Positions 35,684-53,555 are shown, numbered from the stretch's first letter. The stretch is 64,000 nucleotides of DNA from Nanobdellota archaeon (GCA_051819805.1 JBNJHD010000002.1:63754-127753); one strand, 5' to 3'. Notes: a model not told the origin generated them from the letters alone. A program made the numbers and translations.

Positions 35684-36205
35684 ATGAAATCACGGTCTGG
35701 ACAAATACAACAAGTATTCATCTACCTCGTAGCGATATTCATCATAGGAGCAATAGCTCTGATAGGAGCAAAATCGCTTTTCGGTATCATGGACCAGAAA
35801 GAACAAGTCGATTATCTCACATTCAAAGAGAATATCAAGAATGAAGTCGAAGATAATAATATTTATGGCACTATCAACGAACGCCGTTTCTCGGTTCCAG
35901 GATCGATGAAAAAGATCTGCTTTGTCGATACCGAAACTTTTTTTGAAGGTCTGGGCGCTGAACTTAAAAGAAACAGCTTTAATGCAGATACAGGTAATGA
36001 TGAGATTGACTTCATCATCCAGGATAGTGTTAGAGATGGTGTTAAAGCGAATATATTTCTTTCTGACGGTCAGACGGTTGTTCCTATCGGCTACTCAAAT
36101 AAAGTTCAAACTGATAAAGACATAACATGCATCAATAATACGAACGGATATTTCAACATAGTATTCAAAGGTCAAGGTCGTAAAACACTCATCCTTCCAA
36201 AATGA
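35684..36205 (+). CDS. class III signal peptide (archaeal pilin-like) protein
   Basis: MKSRSG|QIQQVFIYLVAIFIIGAIALIGA: a basic N-region, G/Q junction, then a hydrophobic helix. Confidence 0.55.
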   Translation: MKSRSGQIQQVFIYLVAIFIIGAIALIGAKSLFGIMDQKEQVDYLTFKENIKNEVEDNNIYGTINERRFSVPGSMKKICFVDTETFFEGLGAELKRNSFNADTGNDEIDFIIQDSVRDGVKANIFLSDGQTVVPIGYSNKVQTDKDITCINNTNGYFNIVFKGQGRKTLILPK

Positions 36206-36215
36206 ATACACTAAG

Positions 36216-37328
36216 ATGATTTCGATGAAACAACATCTGCTTGACGGACAAAAAGCTCAAATCCAACTACAATTCAATTGGATTTTTGTCATTATCATAG
36301 GCGCTGTTCTTCTAGGGTTCTTTTTCTCGCTTACTAGTACACAAACTACTGTTTCAGAACAAAGGATAACTGCAGCGACAGCTCGTCAGCTGGATACGAT
36401 AATAACATCCACTGCACAGAAATCAGGTACGTTCAAAAAATTCACCAATGTTCCCGAACGAGAGTTGACATTTTATTGTAATAGTAGAACAGGTCTGTAT
36501 CATTATGAAGTTGATGGTATTCGTGTGGGAACGACAAAACATGATGTTTTATTTACACCACATCAATTCACACCACTAGGGATATACACATGGACTCTTG
36601 ACTGGAGCATCCCATACAAGATGACGACATTCACTTACTTGACTCATGAAGATCATATGTTCATATTCTATGACGACAATCCTTCAGGATCAGCTGATGA
36701 TTTTGACCAGCTCTATGAACCCTTCCCAAAAAATATGACTCATGTTGTCTATAATAAGAGTACAATTGCTGATTTTTCACAGGATAGGCTCAATTATAAT
36801 GACTATACGTATGTGTTTTTCAACAATCAAGATATACCTGAAGAACTCAAAAAAGGTATTCAAGGAGATAATGCTCTTGTCATCACGATAACACCTCAAA
36901 AAGCAGATGTTTTCTCCTACGGCAATGTAACTTTCATGAGTGGAGATGACTATTCAAGTAGTAGTGCTGGCGAGAACACACCATATTTCGGTAGAGCATC
37001 ACTGTATGGAGCACTCTTTTCAGGTTCAAAGCAATTATTCGAATGTAACATGGATAAAGCATACTCGTACATGCATATAGTGACACTCATGCAACTAGAT
37101 AGAGTCAATAGAGTTATTCCTTATGTAAATCCTACCTGCAATAGAGTATTAGGAGGAATCGATGATGGAATTCCACGAACAAGACAGCATCTAGGAAATA
37201 TTTCAGATATTCTCGCTGATGGTATCCGAACTCAAGAAGATGTCAAAACATTATATGATAAAACTCTTCTGGTTGAAGAGAGTAATTATAAACTGGCGAT
37301 GCAAGGGAACTGCCCTCTCATCTATTGA
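36216..37328 (+). CDS. class III signal peptide (pilin-like) protein, 370 aa
   Basis: ...DGQKA|QIQLQFNWIFVIIIGAVLLGFFF, sharing the K-A-Q-I-Q motif with its neighbours. Confidence 0.5.
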   Translation: MISMKQHLLDGQKAQIQLQFNWIFVIIIGAVLLGFFFSLTSTQTTVSEQRITAATARQLDTIITSTAQKSGTFKKFTNVPERELTFYCNSRTGLYHYEVDGIRVGTTKHDVLFTPHQFTPLGIYTWTLDWSIPYKMTTFTYLTHEDHMFIFYDDNPSGSADDFDQLYEPFPKNMTHVVYNKSTIADFSQDRLNYNDYTYVFFNNQDIPEELKKGIQGDNALVITITPQKADVFSYGNVTFMSGDDYSSSSAGENTPYFGRASLYGALFSGSKQLFECNMDKAYSYMHIVTLMQLDRVNRVIPYVNPTCNRVLGGIDDGIPRTRQHLGNISDILADGIRTQEDVKTLYDKTLLVEESNYKLAMQGNCPLIY

Positions 37329-37347
37329 TTGTTCATAAAACACGAAA

Positions 37348-37851: not shown

Positions 37852-37866
37852 CGATGGAGTAATCAT

Positions 37867-38373
37867 ATGATACCAAGAAAAGCACAGCAAGAGATCATAG
37901 GACTTGTCATTATTGTTCTTATAGTTTCCATGGCAATGCTCATCTACCTTTCAAGCAAAGCTGAAGAAGCTGAAGAGAACCAAGGAGTAAATATCCACAA
38001 GGAATACGCGTATAACGAGCTTGCCATGAGCTTTCTTGATACTATTGTCGATACATCAGTGTGTAATGTGGATATAGATAAACTTGTCAGAGATTGCGGG
38101 TCAAGACAAGAGATTGTCTGTAGTGATGGCAAAACATCTTGTGAGAAGCTCAACGAGACAATAATAGATATAAAAAATAACACGTTGGACGTGTGGGGGA
38201 TGGCATATGGTCTTATCATCAATTATCCTGACACTAGTCCTGCGCCTGATTTTGAATATATACGTGATGATTGCACGAATGAAACAACTGGTCGAAGCGC
38301 TCCTGGTTGGATTCCAGTATCTCTTCACCCACAAGGAACAGCAATGATCGAACTTGGCATCTGTGAATCATAA
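37867..38373 (+). CDS. class III signal peptide (pilin-like) protein
   Basis: MIPRKA|QQEIIGLVIIVLIVSMAMLIYL. Confidence 0.5.
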   Translation: MIPRKAQQEIIGLVIIVLIVSMAMLIYLSSKAEEAEENQGVNIHKEYAYNELAMSFLDTIVDTSVCNVDIDKLVRDCGSRQEIVCSDGKTSCEKLNETIIDIKNNTLDVWGMAYGLIINYPDTSPAPDFEYIRDDCTNETTGRSAPGWIPVSLHPQGTAMIELGICES

Positions 38374-38483
38374 GCATTTATTTATAAATGAATGAAAAGT
38401 TTTAAATACTATTGTTGTGGAAATTTATATACTGTTATTGTAATATAGTCAACTTCGTGTTGATTGTGTGAGGTGTTTTTTAG

Positions 38484-38768
38484 ATGATACGAATGAACAG
38501 GAAAGGTTCCGAACTTTCTATGAATGTGATAATTATAGCAGCAATAGCTCTGCTTGTCCTTGTTATCCTAGCGGTCATGCTACTCCAGAAAGGAGGAGAT
38601 ATACAGGAAGGAACGAGTTGTACAGGTCTAGGTGGAGAATGCTGCTCTAGCTGCGGAAACGCATGTGTAGTTGGTGGACAGAAATATTCCGTGCCACATC
38701 CTACTGGCGAATGTCCTTCTGGTCAGCAATGCTGCTTGAAATTAGGTGATGGAGACACAAACCGATAA
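38484..38768 (+). CDS. small (94 aa) Cys-rich pilin-like protein; candidate major pilin
   Basis: Canonical archaeal prepilin N-terminus MIRMNRKG|SELSMNVIIIAAIALLVLVILAVMLL. A short C-terminal domain with 8 Cys. It has its own TATA-like elements (TTTATTTATAAAT at 38377, AAATTTATATAC at 38422) in the only sizeable intergenic gap of the operon. Confidence 0.55.
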   Translation: MIRMNRKGSELSMNVIIIAAIALLVLVILAVMLLQKGGDIQEGTSCTGLGGECCSSCGNACVVGGQKYSVPHPTGECPSGQQCCLKLGDGDTNR

Positions 38769-41340
38769 GGTTCTCCACTTTTTTTCTTTCTTTCGAGGTG
38801 TGAAATTGGCAGGGCGATTACCAGATTCGAAACGAGCACTCAGCTCAATGGGAACAATAGGGAGTATAGTGATAGTACTCATCATCATCGCGCTTCTGCT
38901 ATTCACGCTTTCAGATGTTTTTGATAAGGCAGAGAAAGGAACGGACTGCGAAGCTATTGGTGGTGTATGGTCTGAAGATTGCAATAAAGATTTTCTTATG
39001 CAAGCAGTAGCTTTCGGCGAGAAAGACGATAAGATATGCTGCTTGAAAAACATAGGGCTTTCTGAGAGTGAAGAAGAGCAGTTCGAGAAATGGTATGAAC
39101 AACAAGCTCAAAGTAGCGGATCAGCACAGTCCGGAAGCCAGCAAGCACGACCTCTCACGTCAGACCAATTCAGTGAGACTCAAGAAGACATCTATATGAT
39201 GTTCAATAATGAGGGCTGGCAAGGGAGTATGACTCTTTCAGAAGCTTCAAACCCTGATAATCACATAACGATAGATCCGGATGACAAGAATACTTTTGCA
39301 GCAGTCAATAACGACCAAGATATCGAACGATGCACTATGGGAATATACCCTGCAGAACCATTTATCGGAGAAGAATTCCGGCGAGATGGTAATACTCCAG
39401 TCTCAGGATTCCAAGTCCAACACCAACCATGCAATATACGAACAGGCATGCAATTCATCGGTATTCTCACAAAAGAAGGTTATTACAAGTGGGATGTGGA
39501 GTTATTCGATGAGAAAGGAGAACGGACAGGTTCCGCTACACGGATCATCCATGTCAAGGAAGGGATATCCTCTCCTTCAGGAGAAGGTATCAAGCAAAAG
39601 ATACTACCTGAGATACGGATCGTTGCCGAAAACAATTTTCGTAAATGCTTCGTTTCAGCACGCGTCATGAACCAAAGCCTTGAAACAGGAAAATATTTCG
39701 GAACAACAACTCCTTCAATCATAAAAGGATATTTCCTAACTGATAAAGAGATAAAGCAAGCAGCAGAGGAAGGGAAAAATATCTGTCCACGCGATCGATC
39801 AACATACAATGAGCCTGTTGACTTCGCAAACGGATGGGATGATATTATTGTCGATTTCAACGAACGCTCTGATTTACACACTGCTTGTTTCTACTTCAAA
39901 GAGTCGGAAACCAGAACCACAACAGGTGCTGATGAACTAGTAACGCTCAATCAAGATAGTTGCGATACGATTGAAGTGATTGATTACAAGCTATTTGAAG
40001 AGATATTCTATGAATGCTCCTACGATTGCGAGATGTATAAGAATCAACAAGTTTCTTGTAATGATAGGGAGTCACGAAACGACAGATGCAGACTATCTCT
40101 AGACTGCGAATGGGAGCAAGGTTTGTTCAAGAAAAACACATGCACGAACTGTCATGAGGATTTCAGTTTTTGCAAGGATTATGATAATGAGGAAGCGTGC
40201 ACATCAAACCAATGTATCATAGATCACAGCTGCTATTGGGAATCAGGTTTTCCGAAAGGAGAATGTAAGGACTGTGATGAGACTCCATCATGTAACGATT
40301 ATAACAGCAGTAAAGCTTGCGAGTCAAACCCTTGTGGTGTTGCAGGTGGAGAGGAAGGAATCTGTTCATGGGAAGATGGTGAATGTAAACTGGACTTGTC
40401 AGCTAGTGGTGGAGACAGCATGAAAACCTGCGATGAGATGAATCGGGGAGAATGTGAAGGAGCACAAGGCTGTCTCTGGGATGCAGCGTTTTTTGGCGGA
40501 GAATGCCAAGATTGTGCCGAGAGAGGAATTGATGATTGTGATTCCTACCCTGACAAAAATGCTTGTAAGCAAGATTATTGCAACATCGAATGCCAATGGG
40601 AAGGAAATGGGTTGTTCAGCTCTGGAGAATGTAATCCTGATGGTTTTTGCGAATCGGATGATGATTGCAACGAAGGCGAAATTTGTCATCAAGGAAAAAA
40701 CCGATGCAAGAAACCTAATGAAGAGATTGATACTGATCAGTTCAATGATCAAGATCCTGATGAAGATGTAGCTACAGAGAATTGTGTTGAGCACGGATGT
40801 GATTTTTCAACTGAACGAAAATGTCTTAGTGAAGGAGGAAAAGACTGTAAGGGTGTTCTAGGCTGTTACTGGATTGCAAATGTAGGTGGTCTTAGTGGAA
40901 GCGAATATTGTCAATCCTGTTCTTCGATCACTTCATGCAGTGATTACAAATACATGTATCCGTGTGACACTAACGAATGCTCTAATGTCAATGATAATTG
41001 TTTCTGGAATCCAGATGAGAATACTGCCTCGGGCAATTATTGTCAATCATGTAATGATATTATGATGTGTAATGATTATATTTCCGAATCAGCCTGTAAC
41101 AGGGATGCTTGTTCAATAGAATATGATTGCATGTGGAATCCTGACTCTCCAGAAAACATTTACGGTGATGGTTGTGTCAATTGCGCTAGGATGACTTGTC
41201 ACGACTATACTACTCAATCACTATGTGAGGAGAATTCATGCGGACTGAATGGCGACCTTGGTTGTGGATGGTCTCAGGATGGTTGTGAACAAGTAATCAG
41301 TGATAGTATTCCTCCCGACTCCGATAGTGCGAATGTCTGA
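38746..41340 (+). CDS. 864-aa pilin-like/surface protein with a C-terminal array of Cys-rich modules
   Basis: N-terminal KRALSSMGTIGSIVIVLIIIALLLF (the start could instead be ATG 38848). The N-terminal module GTDCEAIGG...KICCLK is paralogous to the preceding 94-aa protein. Residues about 450-860 hold more than 8 tandem C-x2-C...C-x-DY...AC-x-N-C...W-x...C modules. Confidence 0.5.
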   Translation: MMETQTDKVLHFFSFFRGVKLAGRLPDSKRALSSMGTIGSIVIVLIIIALLLFTLSDVFDKAEKGTDCEAIGGVWSEDCNKDFLMQAVAFGEKDDKICCLKNIGLSESEEEQFEKWYEQQAQSSGSAQSGSQQARPLTSDQFSETQEDIYMMFNNEGWQGSMTLSEASNPDNHITIDPDDKNTFAAVNNDQDIERCTMGIYPAEPFIGEEFRRDGNTPVSGFQVQHQPCNIRTGMQFIGILTKEGYYKWDVELFDEKGERTGSATRIIHVKEGISSPSGEGIKQKILPEIRIVAENNFRKCFVSARVMNQSLETGKYFGTTTPSIIKGYFLTDKEIKQAAEEGKNICPRDRSTYNEPVDFANGWDDIIVDFNERSDLHTACFYFKESETRTTTGADELVTLNQDSCDTIEVIDYKLFEEIFYECSYDCEMYKNQQVSCNDRESRNDRCRLSLDCEWEQGLFKKNTCTNCHEDFSFCKDYDNEEACTSNQCIIDHSCYWESGFPKGECKDCDETPSCNDYNSSKACESNPCGVAGGEEGICSWEDGECKLDLSASGGDSMKTCDEMNRGECEGAQGCLWDAAFFGGECQDCAERGIDDCDSYPDKNACKQDYCNIECQWEGNGLFSSGECNPDGFCESDDDCNEGEICHQGKNRCKKPNEEIDTDQFNDQDPDEDVATENCVEHGCDFSTERKCLSEGGKDCKGVLGCYWIANVGGLSGSEYCQSCSSITSCSDYKYMYPCDTNECSNVNDNCFWNPDENTASGNYCQSCNDIMMCNDYISESACNRDACSIEYDCMWNPDSPENIYGDGCVNCARMTCHDYTTQSLCEENSCGLNGDLGCGWSQDGCEQVISDSIPPDSDSANV

Positions 41341-41490
41341 AACCAAACCAGTCTTATCGAAACTAGTGATGTATAATGAAATGTATTCGAGAACTATACA
41401 AAAAAGCAATTATGAACGAGACTGTTATTATCATATTCTCAATACTATTATTCATAGCAGTAGCTGCAGCAATCATGAAGGTGAGATCGA

Positions 41491-42174
41491 ATGTTTTCGG
41501 GTAATAAGAAAGGATTCGATACTTGGCAAATCATTACTATAACTGTAGCAATCATCACCTTGATAGCTATTTCAAGTATATGGAATCAAGCTCATGGTTC
41601 AGTCAAAGAATCCTTTGATGGAGTCGCATGCAGAGCCACAATCCACGCTCACGATATCACAGACACAGTATTCACTCCAGGTATTGAAAAAAGCTGCGCG
41701 ACAAGAGAACGACGAATATCACTCAAGGATAAGACGAAAGACGACTTGATCAAAGAACTGGAGAAACTCATGGCAAACTCTTGGTTGATGGTCAATGAAG
41801 GTCGATCAGATGACCTTTGGGAAGAGGATGCTCCTTTGAAAAAAGCAGGCTACTCATGCATGGCAACAGATCACATCTTTTTCGAGGATGTCGATAAGAG
41901 AGATTTCGAAGAAGAAATGATCACCCCTGAAGAGATAAGAGCACATATGAAAGAATCATATAAGAATGACGATTACACGTATCACATGTATATACAAGGG
42001 CATGGTGGTGTAGGAACGTACAAGATAACAGACAATGTGACTTTCAATAATGAATATATAATTTCAATAGCAAGTCCTCACTTCAATATATTCACACGAG
42101 AAGACGAGTTTGCAACAGGACTCATCTTGAGCTCGCTTGAAACAGGAAAACAGATAGGGTGTAAGCTAGTATGA
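41491..42174 (+). CDS. class III signal peptide (pilin-like) protein
   Basis: MFSGNKKG|FDTWQIITITVAIITLIAISSIW. Confidence 0.5.
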   Translation: MFSGNKKGFDTWQIITITVAIITLIAISSIWNQAHGSVKESFDGVACRATIHAHDITDTVFTPGIEKSCATRERRISLKDKTKDDLIKELEKLMANSWLMVNEGRSDDLWEEDAPLKKAGYSCMATDHIFFEDVDKRDFEEEMITPEEIRAHMKESYKNDDYTYHMYIQGHGGVGTYKITDNVTFNNEYIISIASPHFNIFTREDEFATGLILSSLETGKQIGCKLV

Positions 42175-42377
42175 TAGACATACTCATTCAACAGATTATC
42201 GACACTGTCCGTCTCGGAAAGAAAGGGATGGAATTTCAAATGATACTGTATCTCATATTAGCTCTCGTAGGTTTTGTCGTCCTGCTTTCAATAATCCTGC
42301 ACGTCACTCAGGATAAAGGAGGAGAAGCACTGAGTGCTACTGATTCACTCTTGAAATCAATCACTGGAAAAGACTAG
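42171..42377 (+). CDS. small (68 aa) pilin-like protein
   Basis: ATGA start/stop overlap with the upstream gene; LGKKG|MEFQMILYLILALVGFVVLLSII. Confidence 0.45.
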   Translation: MIDILIQQIIDTVRLGKKGMEFQMILYLILALVGFVVLLSIILHVTQDKGGEALSATDSLLKSITGKD

Positions 42378-42401
42378 ATGACATAAAGGTGCCAATACAA
42401 T

Positions 42402-44638: not shown

Positions 44639-44658
44639 AATAAGTATTTATACTGTGA

Positions 44659-46296: not shown

Positions 46297-46329
46297 ATGC
46301 TCATGCGATAAAAATGACGGTAGTTCAAG

Positions 46330-47232
46330 ATGAGAAAAAAACTTTCGAAGAACAAGAAAGCTTCCTGGCCAGTTCTCATAATTATGGATCTCATCGTAGC
46401 AGTCATGATCATACTTATCCTCGTTGGAATCTATGAGATATTCACTGATGAATCTCAAGTTGATAACATCGCAATGGCAAGGGATGTAGCAACACTTGTT
46501 GATGCTGTTCATGCAACAGAACGGGACTTGATATATAGTTATCCTGAAAGTTTCTATGAAAAAGACTTATTCTTCAACCGGACGAAGATACTCGTTACAA
46601 AAGATGTCTCTGGAATGTCAGGAAAACTTGCTTCACTACGATTTCTCTCATCCTATCCTGTTCACTTGAGTGATTTCATAACGATCAATGCTGTACGTAC
46701 AATAGACGGTGCAAAAATAATTCTTGAAAAAAAAGATCGAGAACTATCGATAATATCAGAACGATCATTTCACCGTGATGAAGAGACCATACCAACTTCA
46801 TCGCTAACACGAGAACAAATCACTCTTGACATTCTCACTGAAAAAAACACGCACTCAGTACAACAAGATTTGGCCAATGCCATTGACGCACAACTAGAAA
46901 TTGAACAGTTCAACGTATCATCAAATAGACCTACTGCAAGTATCATCATGGCTTCAAAGAGTGAAGGACGAATAACGATATATTATGAAGAAACACATAA
47001 GAAATCGATGGAACCGATAGCAGAGATACTCATATCATATCTTGAAAAATCAGATGATCTTGCAGTGACAAGCCAACCACTCCAATATACTCACGATACT
47101 CATTTGGCATCTATCAAGATAGCGATACCTGAAACAGTAGATTATCAAGATTATTTCATGAATCAAAACAACAAAGATGCATTTGTAGAACGAATTATCT
47201 ATTCACTCAAACAATATTATCCGACACAATGA
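46330..47232 (+). CDS. class III signal peptide (pilin-like) protein
   Basis: MRKKLSKNKKA|SWPVLIIMDLIVAVMIILILVGIY. Confidence 0.45.
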   Translation: MRKKLSKNKKASWPVLIIMDLIVAVMIILILVGIYEIFTDESQVDNIAMARDVATLVDAVHATERDLIYSYPESFYEKDLFFNRTKILVTKDVSGMSGKLASLRFLSSYPVHLSDFITINAVRTIDGAKIILEKKDRELSIISERSFHRDEETIPTSSLTREQITLDILTEKNTHSVQQDLANAIDAQLEIEQFNVSSNRPTASIIMASKSEGRITIYYEETHKKSMEPIAEILISYLEKSDDLAVTSQPLQYTHDTHLASIKIAIPETVDYQDYFMNQNNKDAFVERIIYSLKQYYPTQ

Positions 47233-47717
47233 AACAACTATTCCAAAGCAGGAAAGGGTCTGATGGCGATGCGTATGTCTCACAAGAGAAACCATTCAAA
47301 TTCATCGCATTCATCGTTATCATAACAGGAGTGCTTATCGTATTTCTTGCTTACGGGAGCAACTTCATGGATGCAGTAGCACATGTGGATGAAAATCTCG
47401 AAGCGGAAATAATGATAGAGAGAATGCAAAACGTCTGCTTTGCTGCAAGAGATCCATACACACTCCAACCCCAAGAGAATATTCTGGAGTATAGGAAGAT
47501 AAACCGCAAAACTCTTCAACGATGTTTTTCAAGTGATAATATTCCAACAATGATCATATCAATAGATCTGCTTGATGAACATACGAAACAAGAAATCAAC
47601 TTCAACCCAAGCTATATGAAAATAGGATCAGGATCGACAGAACGAGATTATGTCAGATACACCGTAATCAAGATTGATGGGGAATCATATCCTGGAGAAC
47701 TGCGAGTGAAAATATGA
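47229..47717 (+). CDS. pilin-like/signal-anchored protein
   Basis: ATGA overlap with the upstream gene; SRKG|SDGDAYVSQEKPFKFIAFIVIITGVLIVFLAY. Confidence 0.4.
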   Translation: MKQLFQSRKGSDGDAYVSQEKPFKFIAFIVIITGVLIVFLAYGSNFMDAVAHVDENLEAEIMIERMQNVCFAARDPYTLQPQENILEYRKINRKTLQRCFSSDNIPTMIISIDLLDEHTKQEINFNPSYMKIGSGSTERDYVRYTVIKIDGESYPGELRVKI

Positions 47718-48352
47718 GAGGAAAAAAGGCTCAACACGAGATGGATCTCACTTCCCTAGCTGCAGGTCTTGTCTTCATTATAATAGCATTCATCATATTT
47801 TCGCAAGTTGCTGATAATATCAGAATGAGTAGTGAAGAAAGAACTCTCCAAGAGGAAATGGAGCTAGGAGTTTCCAGGCACTTAAGAACGTTGCTTGAAT
47901 CCCCTGCAGATTATCAGGGATCGAAAGTGAAAGTTTCAGAACTCATACAGGATTATTACTATTATTATCTTCAGCAAGAAGAAGATGTTTGCGAGATACA
48001 TAGTTGTAGTGATCACATGATTCTCATAAAAAAATCAATACAAGAAAGTGTTGATCATTCATCAAGACTACTTGAAGGAAACAAGGATATCAATACATAT
48101 CTGATGAAAGCAGACGATCCTGAGATAACGCTAGGGGAAGTCACGTATGATGTAGATCCCCACTCTCGAAGTTGCAGCAGAAATGACGATGAGTCTTATT
48201 ATTGTGTTGGAGGAACTGTCTTCTCCTCTGACGCAGTGTTTTTACCATTACGAACTCACGAGTCACTTTCAGGATATGATGAGTATGTTATTGTGTTCGT
48301 CTTCGGACTTTATGACGTTGAAGCACAAGCCAGTTACTCGAAAATCGTTTGA
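47714..48352 (+). CDS. class III signal peptide (pilin-like) protein
   Basis: ATGA overlap; MRGKKA|QHEMDLTSLAAGLVFIIIAFIIF shares the K-A-Q motif. Confidence 0.45.
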   Translation: MRGKKAQHEMDLTSLAAGLVFIIIAFIIFSQVADNIRMSSEERTLQEEMELGVSRHLRTLLESPADYQGSKVKVSELIQDYYYYYLQQEEDVCEIHSCSDHMILIKKSIQESVDHSSRLLEGNKDINTYLMKADDPEITLGEVTYDVDPHSRSCSRNDDESYYCVGGTVFSSDAVFLPLRTHESLSGYDEYVIVFVFGLYDVEAQASYSKIV

Positions 48353-48363
48353 ACACTAAAAAA

Positions 48364-51300
48364 ATGAAATCGCACATGAAAAGCTCAAAAAAAGGAGTTT
48401 CACTCCTACTATCAAGTATATTCGTTTTACTGATGGTCATAGGAATCATATTAGCAGTCTATAATCCTGACGAGCAGATAGATATAGGGTCTAAACAATA
48501 TCAGGTACTGATTTCAAACGAGAAAGCCTCAGCGATTGATTTATTCATCAAGCAAGCTTTCAAGTTATCTTCTGACTATTCAGTCGATATATTTTTTCAC
48601 AACAATGGTGTATTCAACGAAGAGACTGAAGACGGAGAACACACTGAACACCAATGCGGAAAATACCTCGCACCTCTATTTTTCAAGTCCTCGGAGGATC
48701 CTGATGCATGTTTTCCTGATTTCAGAGATAATTTTAAAGCTTATCTCGGTACAGACTTCAATAAGAAACTTCTCACATATCCTGAAATAGATCTTTATTT
48801 CAATCCAGAAATATTCATCGGAGAACAAAATGACTTCATAACATGCGATGGTTCTTCATCACTAGCACAAACTTATATTGAGCGGTCAAACAAGGAAGCA
48901 TGGAATACAGGTGGAAAAACTTATCTCGAAACCGCTTTTGAGGTGGCAGCTGACACAGGTGCTGACCCTGCTTTACTTCTCGCCCATGCATCAATGGAAA
49001 GTGCTATGGGTGAAGATAATACGTGCACAAATCAAGGAAAGAGTTCTCTGACAGGCTGCGGTTGGCTTCCAACTTGTTCAAAAGACTGCGGTTGTGAAGA
49101 TACACGCGGTTATTTCGAATCAGACACTAGCCAATTCCAATGCACAGCTCGTGTCGATAAGGCTGCGTTCGCAGGGGAAGGATCGTATGAGAAATGCACA
49201 CCATATAGAGATAACCCTGAACTGCTTTTCAATTGTGTCATGTGTGTTTATCAAGGAAATTATGATACTGTCATTCCAGGAGGTGGAGAAAAATACTTTA
49301 CAAAAGATGATACATGCCGTTATGCAGAAATCGTTTCATCATTATATTGTGGTTGGAATAAGTATCTGTCTCAAGAATACGAGGAAGAAATTCTTAGCGA
49401 TGATAAAGTAAGCTCATTTGTCTCAATGGAAACAGAAGAAGCTATTGAGATACCTATACTGACTCAATCCGAGCTACGATCAGATATCAACCGAAAATCA
49501 TATCCTAACGGTCTGCTCGGAGGGTTCCAGAACGAACGAATAATACCTTGCGGTTCTTCAACGTGCTTAGCAGATATTGCCGAATACTATCATAGTCTTT
49601 ACAGGCAGTATCCGTATGTGTGGGGAGGAGAATCACCATACTCATATCAGGATACAAAACCATTAACTGAAGAACAAGATTCGGTATTCTACAAAGTTTC
49701 AGTGACAAGAAAGCAACCTGAAAAAGTCGCATTCACAGAACCAGGATTCGACTGTTCAGGATGGGTCTGGTGGGTCGCTTCACATTCAAGTGCACAACCA
49801 CTCAGCATACGAAATGATGCGGAAGGCTTTTACAGGATGTTACAGAAATCAACGGATGCACAACCTGTTTGTGATAAAGAAAACGAGAAATCCTGTTCAA
49901 AAGAGACTATTATCAATAACGCACAACCAGGAGATATCTTATTCTACAAAGGACTTCATGATCCTAAAGTAACTCATATCATGATCTATCTCGGTGAAGG
50001 AGTCATCAGTCACTCTCGAGGATCGAAAGGTCTTGTCAAAGAAGATATTCCACCATCATACACTAATAACATACAAGCAGTTTACCATCTCAAAGGATCG
50101 GCATTCAGTGGAACTCACGATTCACTTGACTCCTACTTCAAGAATAGCGATGAAGAGTTATCCGAGTCAAAAGGTTCTTGTGTCTTACCAATTGATTTCA
50201 CGCAAATCAATGAAGAAGCTATAGATTCGACAAGAGTATCTTTTGAAGAACTCCAGGAAACAATCATTAAGAACGATCTTGAACAGACCATTCAGGAAGC
50301 GTCCAAAAAATACCGTATTCCAACAGCATATATCAAGGCGATAATCACGACAGAAGTAGGTGGATCGAAATATCTCGATAAATACTTATCAGGAGAAACA
50401 ACAATAAGCGAGAGCAATATGAGAGGTCCGATGCAATTATCACGTGTGGCTTGCGATACTCTAAATGATGCAGAAGCTGATTCGTGCGACCTCAAAGTTA
50501 TAGAGAAAGGTGATGTGGAAAACGCGATCATGACTTCGACCAGATTCATAGCGCACCTCAGGGACACGACACAATATATTGACAAGAACAATCCGGATTA
50601 TTACATGTTATCGCTAGCTTACAATGCAGGTCCGGGAAGCCTGAAATATATTCTAGAAACTGCAAGCAAGAGAACAGGAATACATCCTGAACAACTACAA
50701 TGGAGAGATATCACTTATAATGACATACAAAACGGGCTCAAAGACACAGGTAAAGATTGGGCTGATGATGAAGACAAATGGAAAGAAGTCCGAGAATATC
50801 CTAATCTTGTCGCTCAATCACTCTCTGAGCAGTGTCTAGGTAATCCTTTGCTACCGAAGACAAGAAGCAGTATCCGATTAGAACCACAAGCTTATGCTAC
50901 TGTCAATATAGATTTCAATCTATTAGAAACGATTGAAGAATTCACAATTTCGCTACAATCATGCAATGATGATCTTGACGTTTGCGTTTCAGAAAAGACT
51001 GATGAGTTCAACCAAGAGTTCTATGATGTTGAAGTTATCGATACAGCTAACGAACTTGACAGGCATTCAACTCCTCAGGATTCAAAAATAATCCGTTCAG
51101 GAGTATATCTTACTGAACTCTCTTCTCAAGATACGAAATCAAGTAATGATGTGTTTGCAATGAATTTCCTTAAACAACTGATTGACTGCTCAACTAATTC
51201 CCAATCAGGATGTGTTTGCATGATAAATTCAAATACTTCAGAATTGCAAGCTGAACAAGTGACATTGAAACTTGCGTGGAACGAACGAAGCTACCAACCA

Positions 51301-52998
51301 GCATCCGAGGCAAACATTTATGTCAATGGAAAACCAAAAGGTTCAATTTCACTTCTCCCACTGAACTTGTTCAAGGAAGATGAACGCTCCGTTGCACCGA
51401 AAGACATAACATTCACCTTCACTAAGAAAAACATTATTATTGAAACATCATCTGGTTTTGAACAGACTATCTCACCGAATCAACAACTAGCAACACTCAA
51501 ACATTTCTCGCTTCAAGATTATACTACTAAGAGTCATCCTTATGATCGCTCACTTATCAACATCAACAAGTATGAACGTTCAACTTCGGCAATGGACTAT
51601 CAAAGCCAGTCACTTGATTTATCAGGTTTGTTTTTTGATAATTCCGATCAAAATCTGCCTTCAGGATCATTTGACCAGTTCTATAATGATGAATTGAAGA
51701 ATTTTATGAAGTTAACGAGAGATGATAAAGAAACATCTGATCGCTGCACGCAAGTCGTCTCCTATGCCCAGAGATATCTAGGTTCGGGATATGGCGGAAC
51801 GGGAGTGTGCACTGCAGAACAAGCTGAACGAGAAGAATGCACTACACAATGCGGATCGTATGTCACTAACGTATTCAGGGAGATTTTTGATGAGGTGCTT
51901 CTGGGTAATGGCAACCAAAAATGCGAATCTGCAGAGTCTGTCAGCGCCAACAGATTCACCAATCCTGAATTGCTTAGAGCAGGAGATATATTCTCTTCAG
52001 ACGGACGATCAGATGCTGCACAGAAATATGGTCACACAGGAATATATGTCGGTAAAGGTTTCGTTTCAGAACCAGCACGTGATTCATCATGGGGAACATA
52101 CTCGTACAAGAGATTCACTCCAGATCCGAACGGAGAGCATGTGTTTATCCATTCTATAGGACCAGTTTCATATAATACTTTATCACAACTCATTTCAGAG
52201 GATAAGCAGGCGAGAAACATCATCAGCTTCTGTAGATATGAACCATGTAAGGAACAAGATGATCCTATCAATGGTTTTGATGTCAAGAGTGGAATGACAC
52301 TATTCTCTTACGAAAAGGATGAGAATGAAAATCATGCTCCATTTATCTGCAGGGATAATTCAGATACTTATCTTTTCAGAACAGAATTTCCTCAGATGCC
52401 TGGAAAAACGATTGATTTCGCTGCAGAACTGAATGACACTGTCGCGCCTGAAACGATCATACAACAATCTGCAAATCAAGCTTCATGCGCATCCAGTCCT
52501 GCTATCATCTTCTCATGGAAAGATGATACGGAACATCTTTATGGGTATAATATCACTGTATGGGCAGAAAATGATAATGAAGATGAAGGAATATCATACA
52601 TCGTACCTCTCACTCATGCTGAATACGCTGATACGAAACCAGAAAACCCGAAGACACTCCACAAGCCTTTCATCACTCAAGATAGTAAGGTGAAAACGTA
52701 TCATTATATGATAGGAAACATCAACAATATACCTTTATTCAAGATCAACACCACTTACTCCTATAAGATAACTCCTTTGGACAATCATTTCAACAGTCCG
52801 CAATCAAGCGATATAGGCAGTATCACTCTCCGTGATTCTGATGAAGCGATAGGACAATTATCAACTATACTATTCCAAGATTCGACACTTTTTGATCTCT
52901 ATTCAACTACTAAAGATCTGTTCAAAGGAGAATGCTCCAATTATCTGGAAGAACTAGCGGAGCAACGAGAAGAAGTACTGGGTGAGATGAGCTCATGA
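48364..52998 (+). CDS. giant (about 1545 aa) multi-domain cell-wall hydrolase with a class III-type signal: N-terminal lysozyme-like region, NlpC/P60 peptidase, GH23/SLT lytic transglycosylase and a second NlpC/P60/CHAP-like domain
   Basis: The ORF-track start 48349 is a TTG overlapping the upstream stop; the first ATG is at 48364 (MKSHMKSSKKG|VSLLLSSIFVLLMVIGIILAV). NlpC/P60 #1: YPYVWGGESPY...GFDCSGWVWWV...GDILFYKG...HIMIYLGEGVISHS (about 49560-50040). SLT: IPTAYIKAIITTEVGG...GPMQLSRVA...LSLAYNAGPGSLKYIL (about 50290-50700). Second NlpC/P60-like: RYLGSGYGGTGVCT...GDIFSSDGR...GHTGIYVGKG...EHVFIHS (about 51740-52170). An additional ...LLLAHASMESAMGED E-S region sits at about 48850-49100. Confidence 0.7.
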   Translation: MKSHMKSSKKGVSLLLSSIFVLLMVIGIILAVYNPDEQIDIGSKQYQVLISNEKASAIDLFIKQAFKLSSDYSVDIFFHNNGVFNEETEDGEHTEHQCGKYLAPLFFKSSEDPDACFPDFRDNFKAYLGTDFNKKLLTYPEIDLYFNPEIFIGEQNDFITCDGSSSLAQTYIERSNKEAWNTGGKTYLETAFEVAADTGADPALLLAHASMESAMGEDNTCTNQGKSSLTGCGWLPTCSKDCGCEDTRGYFESDTSQFQCTARVDKAAFAGEGSYEKCTPYRDNPELLFNCVMCVYQGNYDTVIPGGGEKYFTKDDTCRYAEIVSSLYCGWNKYLSQEYEEEILSDDKVSSFVSMETEEAIEIPILTQSELRSDINRKSYPNGLLGGFQNERIIPCGSSTCLADIAEYYHSLYRQYPYVWGGESPYSYQDTKPLTEEQDSVFYKVSVTRKQPEKVAFTEPGFDCSGWVWWVASHSSAQPLSIRNDAEGFYRMLQKSTDAQPVCDKENEKSCSKETIINNAQPGDILFYKGLHDPKVTHIMIYLGEGVISHSRGSKGLVKEDIPPSYTNNIQAVYHLKGSAFSGTHDSLDSYFKNSDEELSESKGSCVLPIDFTQINEEAIDSTRVSFEELQETIIKNDLEQTIQEASKKYRIPTAYIKAIITTEVGGSKYLDKYLSGETTISESNMRGPMQLSRVACDTLNDAEADSCDLKVIEKGDVENAIMTSTRFIAHLRDTTQYIDKNNPDYYMLSLAYNAGPGSLKYILETASKRTGIHPEQLQWRDITYNDIQNGLKDTGKDWADDEDKWKEVREYPNLVAQSLSEQCLGNPLLPKTRSSIRLEPQAYATVNIDFNLLETIEEFTISLQSCNDDLDVCVSEKTDEFNQEFYDVEVIDTANELDRHSTPQDSKIIRSGVYLTELSSQDTKSSNDVFAMNFLKQLIDCSTNSQSGCVCMINSNTSELQAEQVTLKLAWNERSYQPASEANIYVNGKPKGSISLLPLNLFKEDERSVAPKDITFTFTKKNIIIETSSGFEQTISPNQQLATLKHFSLQDYTTKSHPYDRSLININKYERSTSAMDYQSQSLDLSGLFFDNSDQNLPSGSFDQFYNDELKNFMKLTRDDKETSDRCTQVVSYAQRYLGSGYGGTGVCTAEQAEREECTTQCGSYVTNVFREIFDEVLLGNGNQKCESAESVSANRFTNPELLRAGDIFSSDGRSDAAQKYGHTGIYVGKGFVSEPARDSSWGTYSYKRFTPDPNGEHVFIHSIGPVSYNTLSQLISEDKQARNIISFCRYEPCKEQDDPINGFDVKSGMTLFSYEKDENENHAPFICRDNSDTYLFRTEFPQMPGKTIDFAAELNDTVAPETIIQQSANQASCASSPAIIFSWKDDTEHLYGYNITVWAENDNEDEGISYIVPLTHAEYADTKPENPKTLHKPFITQDSKVKTYHYMIGNINNIPLFKINTTYSYKITPLDNHFNSPQSSDIGSITLRDSDEAIGQLSTILFQDSTLFDLYSTTKDLFKGECSNYLEELAEQREEVLGEMSS

Positions 52999-53555
52999 AA
53001 TCACAAGCAATGATTCTAGTAGCATTACTGCTTTCTATACTTCTCGTGTCCAGTCCTGTTCTTTCTCTCGATTGCGTGAAAGGTATAGATGGGTACTGTG
53101 ATGAAGCTTGCCGTGAAGTCGACTTCGATTGCGCTTCAAATCCTAATCTCGAAGCAAAAATCCAAACAGATCTTGAAAAAAATGATTCAACTCCCCGACA
53201 GGATCCTTATAGGGAAATTCATGCTTCAGACACACTTATTCTCATAGGAACAAAAACAATTCCTGAATACGAAGCAAGGAAACCAACAAACGATCATATC
53301 AACGAGAATATGGGTGTGTTGCTTTTAGCGATCGCAATATCTCTCATTTTTATCAGTATAACACTCCTTATCATTCACCGTATGGAACTCAAACAAGGAG
53401 ACGATACGAGGATTCTGGAGAATATGAAATTCCACATCAAACGGCTCAGGCGCCACGGTCATTCCGATGAGGATATCAAGAAGATGTTTCTCCATAAGAA
53501 CCACCATTCCAGAATGATCGATAAGGCGTTTAAAGCACTGGAAAAACAGGCATAA
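52995..53555 (+). CDS. bitopic membrane protein (Sec signal plus C-terminal TM); last gene of the operon
   Basis: ATGA overlap with the giant hydrolase gene. Signal MILVALLLSILLVSSPVLSLDC, a CxxxxxC motif, TM GVLLLAIAISLIFISITLLII and a basic tail. Confidence 0.45.
   Translation: MKSQAMILVALLLSILLVSSPVLSLDCVKGIDGYCDEACREVDFDCASNPNLEAKIQTDLEKNDSTPRQDPYREIHASDTLILIGTKTIPEYEARKPTNDHINENMGVLLLAIAISLIFISITLLIIHRMELKQGDDTRILENMKFHIKRLRRHGHSDEDIKKMFLHKNHHSRMIDKAFKALEKQA

Follow-up and report, generated by a model that had tools for sequence, protein, structure and literature searches.

What does a long run of genes encode when its products belong to otherwise dissimilar families and share one kind of N-terminus? 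The question arises at positions 35684–53555 of a 64,000-nt stretch of DNA from a Nanobdellota archaeon (GCA_051819805.1 JBNJHD010000002.1:63754-127753), the whole of which is called the window here. An earlier note on this DNA described a single operon of about 16 genes, nearly all with class III (prepilin-like) signal peptides, and proposed a pilus-like surface apparatus. We give somewhat better than even credence to the reading that the locus supplies the structural and surface components of a type IV filament-like apparatus found throughout the Woesearchaeales. The N-termini, the lollipop-shaped models and the conserved gene order speak for such an apparatus, while profile searches, the fit to a FlaFind-type pattern and the search for machinery in cis do not.

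Organization of the Locus

The ORF layout confirmed that every gene between 35684 and 53555 is on the plus strand, densely packed (Table 1). There are 17 genes, not 16, because a 42-aa gene (MKCIRELYKKA↓IMNETVIIIF...) had been overlooked. It occupies a seeming 150-nt gap at 41341–41490, and the widest genuine gap is, as had been stated, the 110 nt 5′ of 38484. The co-directional block also extends further than had been described, from 16254 to 55285. Four of the five ATGA overlaps claimed earlier are present (42171, 47229, 47714 and 52995); the fifth, at 44141, exists only if the 171-aa gene is read from its second ATG, and a further 4-nt overlap, TTGA with a TTG start codon, is at 48349. The 23-nt overlap of the ORF starting at 38746 with the preceding gene was borne out.

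The description as a single operon did not hold: the 94-aa gene E has a conserved BRE/TATA-like motif in front of it, and the region comprises more than one operon. This motif was found in 7 of 8 loci whose upstream regions were aligned, with an exact match in the window and an invariant GAGGT ribosome-binding site 3′ of it. The window holds two matches in all, a number that is weak alone (19 of 100 shuffles give at least 2); the other match may mark the start of the upstream transcription unit. Cysteine makes up 2.7% of the operon products, mostly in even numbers, vs. 0.9% elsewhere in the window, which suggests that the products are extracellular.

Four giant surface proteins are encoded between 17041 and 35652, where an unrelated Memo-like gene is interspersed. 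Members of the g1176 family (about 350–780 aa), with N-termini of the form [KR][GA]↓Q(I/V)T(I/V)(F/Y)IIIGI, are found 5′ of the giant(s) at most related loci. Homologues of g1390, which has sub-threshold CarboxypepD_reg and fn3 matches, lie directly 5′ of gene A in most loci, and the position of g1574 (Big_13 Ig-like match, sub-threshold) immediately 5′ of A is likewise conserved.

TABLE 1. Features of the locus and its upstream region; an arrow marks the class III-like site.
Feature	Position	Strand	Description
BRE/TATA-like motif AAAGCTTTAAATA	16977..16989	+	52 nt 5′ of first giant gene; motif match
Giant surface protein	17041..22086	+	1681 aa, 70 Cys, N-terminal hydrophobic segment; without Pfam domain
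g1176	23101..26631	+	1176 aa; class III-like MRTKG↓QATIFVILG
g1390	26724..30896	+	Sec-signal giant, 1390 aa, 79 Cys; candidate adhesin
g1574	30928..35652	+	Sec-signal giant, 1574 aa; candidate adhesin
A173	35684..36205	+	Core pilin-like protein, RSG↓QIQQVFIYLVA; orthologues K[GA]↓Q
B370	36216..37328	+	Core large pilin-like protein, QKA↓QIQLQFNWIFVIIIG; predicted structure
C167	37348..37851	+	Core pilin-like protein, TKA↓QIQVSESIFIVIF
D168	37867..38373	+	Core pilin-like protein, RKA↓QQEIIGLVIIV; 6 invariant Cys
BRE/TATA-like motif AAAGTTTTAAATA	38396..38408	+	Archaeal, conserved; in 110-nt gap before E
E94	38484..38768	+	Candidate major subunit, NRKG↓SELSMNVIIIAAIALLVLVILAV, then 45-residue six-Cys knob
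F864	38746..41340	+	Class III-like KRA↓LSSMGTIGSIVIV; large ectoprotein, 66 Cys, C-terminal Cys-rich repeats
Mini-gene	41376..41504	+	42 aa, YKKA↓IMNETVIIIFSILLFIAVAAAIMKVRSNVFG; barely more than one helix
G227	41491..42174	+	Class III-like, NKKG↓FDTWQIITITVAI
H68	42171..42377	+	Small class III-like protein, GKKG↓MEFQMILYLILALVGF; predicted mature form ~49 aa
I580	42402..44144	+	N-terminal hydrophobic helix, ordinary signal or anchor
J	44141..44638	+	~165 aa from ATG at 44141; NKKKA↓SSSTYIILGVV
K545	44659..46296	+	Class III-like TKKG↓ATLSLVAIMSI; 10 Cys
L300	46330..47232	+	Class III-like, NKKA↓SWPVLIIMDLIV
M162	47229..47717	+	Class III-like, long polar spacer, SRKG↓SDGDAYVSQEKPFKFIAFIVII; widespread in order
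N212	47714..48352	+	Class III-like, GKKA↓QHEMDLTSLAAGLVFIII
O1549	48349..52998	+	Class III-like SSKKG↓VSLLLSSIFVLL; giant, 1549 aa
O, NlpC/P60 domain	49612..50049	+	aa 422-567; PF00877, E=1e-13, 51.6 bits (cutoff 23)
O, SLT lytic transglycosylase	50287..50664	+	aa 647-772; PF01464, E=7e-6, 26.0 bits (cutoff 21.3)
O, CHAP domain	51844..52047	+	aa 1166-1233; PF05257, E=1.5e-5, 25.9 bits (just under cutoff 26)
P186	52995..53555	+	Sec-type signal peptide, Cys-rich ectodomain, C-terminal TM anchor, basic tail

Conservation and the Core Genes

Conservation of gene order in related DPANN genomes, proposed earlier as a check, was found over about 80 syntenic loci, all in Woesearchaeota/Nanobdellota MAGs. 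Sixty were in species representatives, with D168 as query, and 20 were metagenome loci, all from Woesearchaeota/Nanoarchaeota. The neighbours RPA and YdjM flank the loci conservedly, and strict synteny with these genes and an ABC transporter extends over dozens of species with 25–80% protein identity, suggesting that the system is vertically inherited and core in nature. A search of the literature gave no characterised operon of such composition, in agreement with the earlier note.

The conserved core consists of the Sec-secreted giant(s) upstream, A-B-C-D, and then E (~85 aa), of which relatives have 1–3 tandem copies. B370 was found in nearly all loci spanning its position. Its model has an alpha-helix at 13–67, a sheet of 7 strands, an alpha/beta domain and, C-terminally, a helical bundle (pLDDT 89.2, pTM 0.82); that of D168 has a helix at 4–62 followed by an alpha/beta head of 4 strands (pLDDT 83.9). 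Structure prediction of the N-termini, another proposed check, thus gave in two core models (AlphaFold, AF2) a helix of 55–59 residues, beginning at the site or a few residues before it, and then beta-sheet. Pilins are defined by an alpha1 of ~50 residues and a beta-sheet head (PMC8179133), and the predicted helix-plus-sheet of B370 and D168 matches this lollipop layout. Fold searches with the core-protein models recognised no pilin, the heads being unlike those of solved pilins. E is a candidate major subunit: its helix (ELSMNVIIIAAIALLVLVILAV) is nearly invariant, it occurs in tandem paralogues, its gene stands behind a promoter-like motif of its own, and its family is very large (871 representative clusters at E ≤ 1e-3).

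Downstream, orthologues of the mini-gene (41–43 aa, with a shared C-terminal K.N.(F/L)G) occupy the same position in loci L001, L004 and L008. K545 is kept in close relatives, with blastp-detectable orthologues in seven loci, and has no match in PDB or Pfam. P186 after O is conserved in close relatives only.

The earlier description of large effector-like ectodomains was borne out for O1549 only. This protein has a conserved system module at its N-terminus and, past it, three murein-hydrolase domains, in which the catalytic motifs, by eye, look intact: catalytic-type FDCSGW and THIMIYLG in NlpC/P60, TTEVGG, GPMQL and AYNAG in SLT, and QCGSYV and GHTGIYVG in CHAP. Orthologues have other murein-hydrolase modules swapped in (Amidase_2 and PF11860). 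Sequence comparison indicates that the hydrolase domains are an addition, in one subclade, to a conserved component. The hydrolase part is absent from most of the order, and this excludes wall digestion as the system's ancestral function.

The N-Termini

All 17 products have one N-terminal hydrophobic helix, and a second hydrophobic segment, C-terminal, is present only in P186. In 15 products the helix follows a short basic leader ending in G or A and leads into a Cys-rich ectodomain. [KR][GA] directly precedes the helix in 13 of the 16 larger ORFs (binomial p=2e-10, with a background probability of 0.113 for G or A after K or R, from the window's own proteins). One of these 16 has SG↓Q, for which its orthologues have KG↓Q or KA↓Q, and the mini-gene product has a KKA↓ site. 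The exceptions are P186 and I580; no [KR][GA] site is present in the window copy of I580 nor in the three orthologues examined. The shortest leaders are MKG or MKKG. With annotated starts, 85 of 102 proteins in 7 loci carry the [KR][GA] site, as do 29 of 33 orthologues of A173 in its strict form; most of the remaining 17 proteins have the site in-frame upstream or small-residue variants (SG, HG, NA, KS). Positions -2/-1/+1 read [KR]-[G/A/S]↓Q/S... over the ~80 loci, even where ectodomains are unalignable, and [KR]-[G/A/S]↓Q holds in five core families and in 145 of 150 E-family representatives. The site is kept across many species even where the remaining sequence has diverged, and this favours a class III (prepilin-peptidase) processing site over a simple membrane anchor, since the positive-inside rule would leave the -1 residue free.

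The claim of class III signals on nearly all products is upheld in that the site is real, far beyond chance. It fared less well in the FlaFind-type prediction that had been proposed: a FlaFind-type pattern matched only 4 of 18 N-termini, because polar residues are frequent at +2 to +6 and the start of the hydrophobic core lies 2–15 residues past the site. Curated pilin and class III profiles of Pfam and NCBIfam recognised no operon member, the best sub-threshold results being TIGR04205 (E=0.19) and PF04021 (E=0.049, for 1 of 37 sequences).

Assembly Machinery

That the window is without an assembly ATPase, platform protein or prepilin peptidase was corroborated by Pfam scans of most of its ORFs, by a Walker-A scan of the whole window, which gave nothing but the ABC transporter, and by the absence of the GxGD motif in four multi-TM ORFs. 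Walker-A/GEIRD motif scans reaching about 10 kb from each of the ~80 loci, with 1.07 Mb covered for the first 69 sources, gave no secretion ATPase, and in eight loci with precomputed Pfam tables no PilC/FlaJ and no peptidase was annotated. Homologous loci with no link to type IV machinery were half of what the earlier note had said would refute it, and these scans and annotations showed no such machinery near the loci. The type IV link consequently depends on published reports of flaI, flaJ and flaK in most Woesearchaeota MAGs (PMC5994134, PMC11606122); there is a contrary statement that DPANN genomes are without type IV pilus components (10.1101/2020.05.14.094862). Archaeal type IV pilin genes can be unlinked from the ATPase (PMC4858521), as the pilin-like genes are at the present locus.

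Proposed Function and Alternatives

If the locus belongs to a type IV filament-like apparatus, its leaders would be class III signal peptides cut after G/A by a FlaK/PibD-type peptidase encoded elsewhere, after which the N-terminal helix would keep each protein in the membrane. A FlaI/FlaJ-type pair of ATPase and platform, its genes likewise outside the locus, would polymerise E into a thin filament or short pseudopilus. A–D might form a priming or tip complex analogous to FimU-PilVWX and GspH-K, and the upstream giants, like PilY1, could be adhesins shown with the tip. The variable downstream products, F to O, would serve as pilin-like ectoproteins of modular build, sparsely incorporated or held at the base. 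In the subclade with the hydrolase domains, O would deliver three predicted peptidoglycan-cleaving activities to the contact site, where the apparatus would bind a bacterial cell and digest its wall locally, in episymbiotic attachment, feeding or predation. If true, this suggests a surface apparatus with which a tiny archaeon of symbiotic type grips and breaches bacteria.

The same genes could encode a non-filamentous complex of membrane-anchored ectoproteins, a surface "plaque" or bindosome-like structure, which we consider unlikely but of some weight. The proteins, trimmed or not by a class III peptidase, would be held by their N-terminal helices and with the Sec-secreted giants would make a fixed patch for attachment and feeding, without ATPase-driven polymerisation. 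The lack of an ATPase or platform in cis at the loci searched agrees with this, as do head domains unlike those of solved pilins, members much larger than pilins (545, 580, 864 and 1549 aa) and the long polar spacers between site and helix in several of them. There is precedent in the sugar-binding proteins of Sulfolobus, which carry class III signals, and in the 2026 proposal that class III-signal proteins "functionalise" type IV filament machineries (10.64898/2026.04.22.720090). The features that make E a candidate major subunit, however, better fit a polymerising protein. Priming complexes of known type IV filaments are typified by a conserved quartet of small pilin-like proteins, and the quartet found here, by analogy, also counts against a plaque.

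It is distinctly improbable that these are ordinary Sec-dependent signal-anchor (type II) proteins unrelated to type IV filaments, K-K-G/A being a lineage-specific quirk of N-terminal coding or membrane insertion rather than a protease site. MNKK-type starts are common in AT-rich genomes, pilin membership is unsupported by profiles, FlaFind-type pattern or fold searches, and machinery in cis was not found. Yet the motif is absent from other membrane and secreted proteins of the window and, since I580 and P186 in the same operon use other kinds of signal, is not general to the locus; the restriction of -1 to G/A/S, often with Q at +1, across dissimilar families also speaks for a protease site. 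That the block is an integrated virus or mobile element, in which the multi-domain hydrolase would be a lysin and the small membrane proteins would have holin-like or structural roles, has a negligible likelihood. Combinations of NlpC/P60, SLT and CHAP do characterise phage tail lysins and the wall hydrolases of conjugative elements, but the synteny with housekeeping neighbours is strict, the GC content of the block equals that of its flanks, most locus versions are without the hydrolase, and the features scanned included neither a tRNA nor a gene for an integrase, capsid or terminase.

Relation to Known Systems

Among archaeal type IV pili with many minor pilins are the Epd pilus of Methanococcus maripaludis and "system 1" (Makarova 2016; Sivabalasarma & Albers 2026). 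Like these, the present locus combines many class III-signal proteins, a major pilin (here the candidate E) of very small size whose site is of the KG↓Q type, Cys-rich components, and polar residues, one of them acidic, in the first positions past the cleavage site. In contrast, searches showed no resemblance in sequence or profile to any of those pilin families, ATPase, platform and peptidase are missing from the locus, the taxon is DPANN, and the set is larger, with 15 members including those of 864 and 1549 aa. The row of four small pilin-like genes resembles fimU-pilVWXY1E of P. aeruginosa and GspH-I-J-K with the major GspG of T2SS. B370 is the enlarged one of the four, compare GspK, and next to the row are a small subunit of the abundant type and, comparable to PilY1, large putative adhesins that are Sec-secreted. 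The analogy concerns layout alone, with no homology or fold match found, across domains of life, and the present sites are without the bacterial G↓F/M...E5 signature.

Functional modules grafted on a pilin-type N-terminus are known from the modular type IV pilins, such as PilB/PilC of Streptococcus sanguinis, and a survey lists 264 such architectures in bacteria, predicted peptidases among them (Raynaud et al., 2021, PMC8179133). Here, unlike there, the carrier is archaeal, the pilin fold is putative and three peptidoglycan hydrolases are grafted; the main text of that survey does not contain the word "hydrolase". The Sulfolobus bindosome similarly has large class III-signal ectoproteins and a separately encoded type IV filament-like assembly system. 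Its cargo consists of solute-binding proteins tied to ABC transporters, whereas the present locus has cell-wall hydrolases, uncharacterised domains and a conserved minor-pilin-like core. VirB1, PrgK, CwlT and BfpH are also multi-domain SLT, NlpC/P60 or CHAP enzymes within surface-machine operons and anchored by an N-terminal helix. These open the producer's own wall, unlike the role proposed for O; as the archaeon presumably has no murein of its own, the substrate of O should be foreign.

Giant extracellular murein-hydrolase proteins of Woese- and Pacearchaeota have already been reported, and O1549 very probably belongs to the same family as fam00969 (Castelle et al., 2021, PMC8204110). Earlier mentions of fam00969-type giant lytic transglycosylases (Rinke 2013; Castelle 2015) are credited in that paper. 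The fam00969 proteins were read as binding or degrading the bacterial wall, so that some of these archaea may be episymbionts of bacteria (PMC8204110). Those reports treat the protein alone, without a class III-like N-terminus, pilin-like operon, NlpC/P60 and CHAP partner domains or short hydrolase-free orthologues, and "pili" and "pilin" have 0 occurrences each in PMC8204110. The giant murein hydrolases were thus already known; their placement in a pilin-like operon is apparently new.

Organization of the operon

All ORFs of the operon lie on the plus strand and are closely packed in the ORF map of the window, as an earlier note on this DNA had described. Its estimate of about 16 genes fell one short of the real count, 17, since a gene of 42 aa had been overlooked. 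This unannotated mini-gene (MKCIRELYKKA↓IMNETVIIIFSILLFIAVAAAIMKVRSNVFG; the arrow marks a candidate cleavage point) sits in an apparent gap of 150 nt, and orthologues of 41-43 aa occupy the same position in three other genomes. The single large gap of the operon is one of 110 nt in front of the gene for E94, the candidate major subunit. Of the junctions noted before, the 23-nt overlap with a preceding gene and four ATGA overlaps of 4 nt were found again; a fifth ATGA overlap exists only when the second ATG of the gene is taken as its start, and there is a further 4-nt overlap, TTGA, with a TTG start. The co-directional run claimed for the operon holds over its whole length, and its true extent is larger. 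Four giant, Cys-rich surface proteins are encoded in its upstream part, where an unrelated Memo-like gene is interspersed. A class III-like start (MRTKG↓QATIFVILG) is also seen in one giant, g1176. The Memo-like product is without an N-terminal hydrophobic segment and is therefore probably cytoplasmic; its gene is probably a passenger.

Coordinates of the operon and of the other features discussed
Feature	Position	Strand	Remarks
Multi-TM ORF	1959-2714		no family match
PolD small subunit gene	3903-5459		
orc1/cdc6 gene	5486-6703	-	
AT-rich intergenic region	6704-7825		1.1 kb; GC 0.27 vs 0.40
MCM gene	10490-12520		
RPA-like OB protein gene	12528-13199		
Multi-TM ORF	13229-14338		matches SpoIIM
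Co-directional run, true extent	16254-55285	+	
BRE/TATA-like 13-mer, one mismatch	16977-16989	+	intergenic, before first giant
Upstream part with giants	17041-35652		
Memo-like gene	22149-23030		PF01875, 7e-35
g1176 gene	23101-26631		
Operon	35684-53555	+	
BRE/TATA-like 13-mer	38396-38408	+	intergenic
E94 gene	38484-38768	+	
F864 gene	38746-41340	+	start overlaps preceding gene
Apparent gap	41341-41490		
Mini-gene	41376-41504	+	
ATGA overlaps	42171, 47229, 47714, 52995	+	
I580 gene	42402-44144	+	
ATGA overlap, second ATG only	44141	+	
TTGA overlap	48349	+	
Start region of hydrolase gene (O1549)	48349-48435	+	
P186 gene	52995-53555	+	
3' neighbourhood	53637-58289		
RPA gene	53637-54800		
YdjM-type membrane hydrolase gene	54839-55285		multi-TM; matches YdjM

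N-termini of the encoded proteins

Each of the 17 products has one N-terminal hydrophobic helix, and a second hydrophobic segment is found only in P186, at its C-terminus. The class III-like N-termini that had been reported for nearly all products are present on 15 of the 17 and on g1176, with a short basic leader ending in G or A. The motif [KR][GA] precedes the helix in 13 of the 16 larger ORFs, one more has SG↓Q (its orthologues K[GA]↓Q), and the mini-gene has KKA↓. G or A follows K or R at a background rate of 11.3% in the proteins of the window, so that 13 of 16 corresponds to a binomial p of 2e-10, and the motif is absent from the other membrane proteins of the window. No such site was found in I580, either here or in the three orthologues examined, and P186 has a Sec-type signal together with a C-terminal anchor.

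The same is seen in related genomes. With annotated starts, [KR][GA] stands directly before the hydrophobic core in 85 of 102 operon proteins from seven loci. Most of the 17 remaining proteins have a site in-frame just upstream or the small-residue variants SG↓Q, HG↓Q, NA↓Q and KS↓Q; the in-frame sites point to mis-called start codons. Five core families share the pattern [KR]-[G/A/S]↓Q, followed by family-specific helices. After the site, the conserved pilin-like proteins A to D (here A173, B370, C167 and D168) read QI.QVF.Y, QI.LQFNWIFV, QIQ.GE(S/T)IF and Q.EI.GLV.IV, respectively, and the g1176 family reads Q(I/V)T(I/V)FIIIG. Among 150 representatives of the E family the site is present in 145, the shortest leaders being MKG and MKKG. 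Judged by this conservation, a class III site, of the prepilin-peptidase type, is the best reading of the N-termini.

The public gene model of the hydrolase O1549, the terminal giant, starts at Met29 within the hydrophobic helix, whereby leader and site are lost. Many gene calls in related loci likewise start downstream of the K-K-G/A site. Because such start errors remove the signal, automated class III prediction would miss it; the lesson for annotation is that public gene calls truncate some N-termini, as in the hydrolase model.

The ectodomains contain 2.7% Cys, mostly in even numbers, vs 0.9% elsewhere in the window, which is consistent with extracellular, disulfide-bonded domains. F864, one of the variable class III-like proteins downstream of E, has 66 Cys, and its C-terminal half is made of repeated units C..C.....C..Y.....C..N.C.......C.W. 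These repeats are present in its orthologues too, and had no match in Pfam or the PDB.

Comparison with type IV pilins

Type IV pilins are defined by an alpha1 helix of ~50 residues, the first half of which is hydrophobic, followed by a beta-sheet head (PMC8179133). The pilin-like architecture proposed earlier is supported by AF2 structure prediction, which gives this helix-then-sheet layout for both D168 and B370. The D168 model (15 sequences, pLDDT 83.9, with 60-67 mid-helix) has a predicted continuous helix at 4-62, two helices and a four-stranded sheet. That of B370 (31 sequences, pLDDT 89.2, pTM 0.82) has a predicted helix at 13-67 from the KA↓Q site, and beyond it a seven-stranded sheet, an alpha/beta domain and a helical bundle.

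The claim that these N-termini are those of archaeal prepilin-peptidase substrates fared less well with a FlaFind-type pattern ([KRDE][GA][ALIFQMVED][ILMVTAS]x3), which fits only four of 18 N-termini, namely those of g1176, F864, K545 (another variable downstream protein) and O1549; in the rest, Q, E or S occurs at positions +2 to +4. The hydrophobic core begins 2-15 residues past the site, not always directly after it. Pfam and NCBIfam models of pilins and class III proteins (PF04021, Pilin_N, the archaellin and N_methyl families, and the TIGR class III models) gave no match at or near threshold, only transmembrane noise, among all operon proteins, 99 small class III-like proteins of related loci and 37 E-family members. 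The best sub-threshold scores were E=0.19 for TIGR04205, E=0.049 for PF04021 (one of 37) and E ~0.02 for Flp1_like (four of 99). Foldseek returned nothing significant, and phmmer and profile searches against PDB sequences with O, K545, F864 and D168 returned nothing useful. The N-terminal architecture is thus that of pilins, and the proteins are not recognized as pilins by similarity, whether by profiles or by the FlaFind-type pattern.

The E family

The helix of E94, (E/G)LS(M/L/I)N(V/T)IIIAAIALLVLVIL, is the best conserved one in the locus. Many genomes carry tandem paralogues of its gene, the sole gene with a sizeable gap in front. Within this gap lie a BRE/TATA-like motif, AAA[CG][AT]TTTAAATA, and a GAGGT that is invariant; the two elements are conserved across seven genomes. 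In the 64-kb window the BRE/TATA-like 13-mer is found only here and, with one mismatch, before the first giant, a count of two that is not statistically significant alone. Its positions suggest two co-regulated transcription units spanning 17041-53555. The family, whose members have ~85 aa, comprises 871 representative clusters at E<=1e-3 in an exhaustive search; among ten clusters looked up, the three members with a source name were called ‘hypothetical protein’ or, spuriously, ‘DUF948 domain-containing’. The conservation of the helix, the tandem copies, the promoter-like motif of its own and the size of the family fit a role of E as the major filament subunit.

In the 45-residue knob that forms the head of E, six invariant Cys follow the spacing C-x6-9-C-x3-8-C-x12-18-C-x6-9-CC, which may be likened to the beta-defensin reference pattern C-x6-C-x4-C-x9-C-x6-CC. 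When the E profile was compared with the PDB, the top non-TM matches all had the beta-defensin fold but were weak: 2k2z, a tick carboxypeptidase inhibitor (E=0.006), defensin-BvL (0.46), crotamine (0.57) and gallinacin-11 (0.82). The Pfam defensin families gave sub-threshold matches only. In combining a hydrophobic N-terminus with a beta-defensin-like domain, E recalls the ‘big defensins’ of animals; judged by Cys spacing and these matches, the likeness could be convergence or more.

Related loci and gene order

Eight annotated contigs were reached through homologues of the hydrolase, D168 and B370. Scanning a single genome for each GTDB species gave 60 loci, and a metagenome scan, with an alignment of 11 E-family sequences as the query, gave 20 more. 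Long contigs bearing the operon include ERZ26052130 ctg19821c (1.07 Mb), JBAYIU010000001.1 (1.56 Mb), CAZCGN010000001.1 (780 kb) and CAYFJV010000002.1 (486 kb). The titled genome records with the locus are Woesearchaeota, Nanoarchaeota or Nanobdellota MAGs, with the exception of one ‘archaeon’, one ‘uncultured archaeon’ and many TPA records. These TPA assemblies (L010, L012, L014, L035, L046 and others) are titled ‘uncultured Methanosarcinales archaeon’ and carry the same Woesearchaeal locus; the titles appear to be wrong or generic.

The gene order, whose conservation in related DPANN genomes had been put forward as a check, is indeed conserved. An optional g1176-like class III protein is followed by one or two Sec-signal giants, A (~175 aa), B (~370), C (~167) and D (~168), one to three copies of E (~85-130 aa), a variable run of class III-like proteins, the terminal protein O and, in many of the loci reaching that far, RPA and YdjM. 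In the window the RPA and YdjM-type genes are followed by an ABC-2 transporter pair on the opposite strand, and this order is kept in three other loci (L001, L004 and L005) though their operon proteins are only 25-40% identical. Such synteny is unusually stable for a DPANN lineage. The system is vertically inherited and order-wide, and is not an island.

Unrelated genes have been inserted at some loci, which indicates that the A-D(-E) core forms a module separable from the remainder. In L029, three genes at 2780-6116, after E, look like NuoE/F/G-type subunits from their N-termini; in L047 an AbrB/MazE-like regulator and a 585-aa protein lie between D and E-like genes (10519-13715).

Search for an assembly machinery

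No ATPase, platform protein or prepilin peptidase is present among the ORFs scanned in the window, in agreement with the earlier note. A scan for Walker-A and GEIRD motifs, covering 69 sources (1.07 Mb in total) and 20 further metagenome loci, revealed no T2SSE/FlaI-type ATPase within ~10 kb of ~80 loci, the sole Walker-A proteins at these loci being the ATPases of neighbouring ABC transporters. Precomputed Pfam tables, available for eight of the loci, show no entry for T2SSE, T2SSF or an A24 peptidase. Three multi-TM ORFs of the window were considered as hidden prepilin peptidases and ruled out, as they have no GxGD. The ‘-300 aa / +590 aa’ genes found after D168 in some relatives were likewise rejected as machinery; one encodes an AbrB/MazE-like regulator and the other a protein with neither a Pfam match nor a Walker A motif.

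Two genome surveys reported flaI, flaJ and flaK in Woesearchaeota (PMC5994134; PMC11606122), the second adding flaB and flaH and finding them ‘in most MAGs’ (PMC11606122). Pilin loci were often unlinked from ATPase/TadC loci in a census of 2016 (PMC4858521), and a groundwater study described type IV pilus components as missing in DPANN (10.1101/2020.05.14.094862). For the present lineage, a peptidase and an assembly system acting in trans are plausible.

Murein hydrolase domains of O1549

O1549 contains NlpC/P60 (1e-13, 51.6 bits vs a Pfam cutoff of 23) and SLT (7e-6, 26.0 bits vs 21.3) domains above threshold, and a CHAP domain 0.1 bit under it (1.5e-5, 25.9 bits vs 26.0). The catalytic motifs look intact: FDCSGW and THIMIYLG for NlpC/P60, TTEVGG, GPMQL and AYNAG for SLT, and QCGSYV and GHTGIYVG for CHAP, the residues being assigned by inspection of motifs rather than by alignment to a solved enzyme. 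The protein is 100% identical to an NCBI entry, ‘MAG: NlpC/P60 family protein [Nanobdellota archaeon]’, and the same MAG also has ACQESE_01130 and ACQESE_01140, which are identical to two further operon proteins. Apart from this name, the locus proteins are annotated as hypothetical.

Orthologues of O bear other murein hydrolase modules, Amidase_2 and PF11860, and terminal proteins of only 260-450 aa, with no Pfam domain, are found across most of the order. An HMM of these short proteins matches the N-terminal 120-230 residues of the giants (O1549 at E=2.6e-6, filters off), and the hydrolase domains are therefore a lineage-specific addition to a conserved component.

Rinke 2013 reportedly includes an activity assay for a related enzyme of nanoarchaeal origin. 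Giant extracellular murein-like transglycosylase proteins of Woese- and Pacearchaeota, as a pointer to bacterial hosts, have already been published (PMC8204110; PMC10936187), and a passage of the former cites Rinke 2013 and Castelle 2015 as noting a murein-like transglycosylase in three DPANN genomes. None of the papers found links those giants to an operon of pilin-like genes or to class III N-termini.

A possible mechanism and its alternatives

On balance we lean towards a type IV filament-like surface apparatus. The leaders would be removed by a FlaK/PibD-type peptidase, and a FlaI/FlaJ-type motor encoded elsewhere would build a thin filament or pseudopilus from E, with A-D for priming and the Sec-secreted giants as tip adhesins. 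The fimU-pilVWXY1E and GspH-K sets resemble A-D and the giants in layout only. The variable downstream proteins would serve as modular pilin-like cargo, and in the subclade of the window O would bring three wall-cleaving activities to a bacterial partner. Within this model class III processing is probable, the case for a bacterial wall as the target of O is even or slightly favourable, and the formation of a true filament is an evenly balanced question.

It is on this last point that the main alternative, a non-polymerising, bindosome-like complex anchored in the membrane, differs. No motor was found near the loci, and the properties of E fit a major subunit; we regard such a complex as possible, if rather doubtful. 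Plain signal anchors, to which the failure of pilin profiles and the FlaFind-type pattern could also be ascribed, are improbable: the positive-inside rule accounts for the K/R before the helix, but neither for the fixed small residue nor for the frequent Q at +1. A virus or mobile element is extremely improbable, being ruled out on synteny, composition (GC ~0.40 in the window, equal inside and outside the locus) and gene content.

The filament-like apparatus can be extended, tentatively and with a less than even chance for the whole, to a reading in which Woesearchaeales own an unrecognised type IV filament family of unannotated subunits. They would comprise a tip complex of four proteins, a major subunit of ~80 aa whose six-Cys head is beta-defensin-like, and cargo on pilin anchors, and would be the ‘missing’ cognate pilins of nanoarchaeal secretion ATPases. 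In one subclade the filament would have gained a triple murein hydrolase on a pilin anchor, which would turn the apparatus into a contact-dependent organelle for breaching bacterial walls. Were this so, these DPANN archaea would live on or prey upon bacteria, not archaea.

Few uncultured archaea are as widespread as the Woesearchaeota. Should the products be pilin-like, the structural genes of a surface appendage for contact with a partner would lie in this locus. The locus would then also answer the 2016 census, which remarked that it could find no cognate pilins for the type IV ATPases of nanoarchaea (PMC4858521). Type IV filament subunits, modular pilins and class III ectoproteins are already known kinds, and the hydrolase giants are also in print. 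What is new are the unannotated protein families, the order-wide A-E core with its upstream giants, the finding of no machinery in cis, and a triple murein hydrolase grafted onto a class III-like N-terminus in an archaeon. This fusion, at its fixed position in the operon, makes the published idea that certain of these archaea may live as episymbionts of bacteria experimentally approachable. The central mechanism is inferred, and the locus gives DPANN biology concrete, testable handles.

Other features of the window

The archaeal genes of the window include those for the PolD small subunit, RPA-like proteins and NurA and, by sequence, Orc1/Cdc6, TBP and MCM. Terminator-like sites were not commoner than in shuffled sequence; the scan for sigma-70 promoters and intrinsic terminators is uninformative for an archaeon. 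An AT-rich intergenic region adjoins the orc1/cdc6 gene and is surrounded by the replication genes for the PolD small subunit, MCM and an RPA-like OB protein. It has weak AT-rich repeats only, with no clear ORB elements, and is probably a replication origin.
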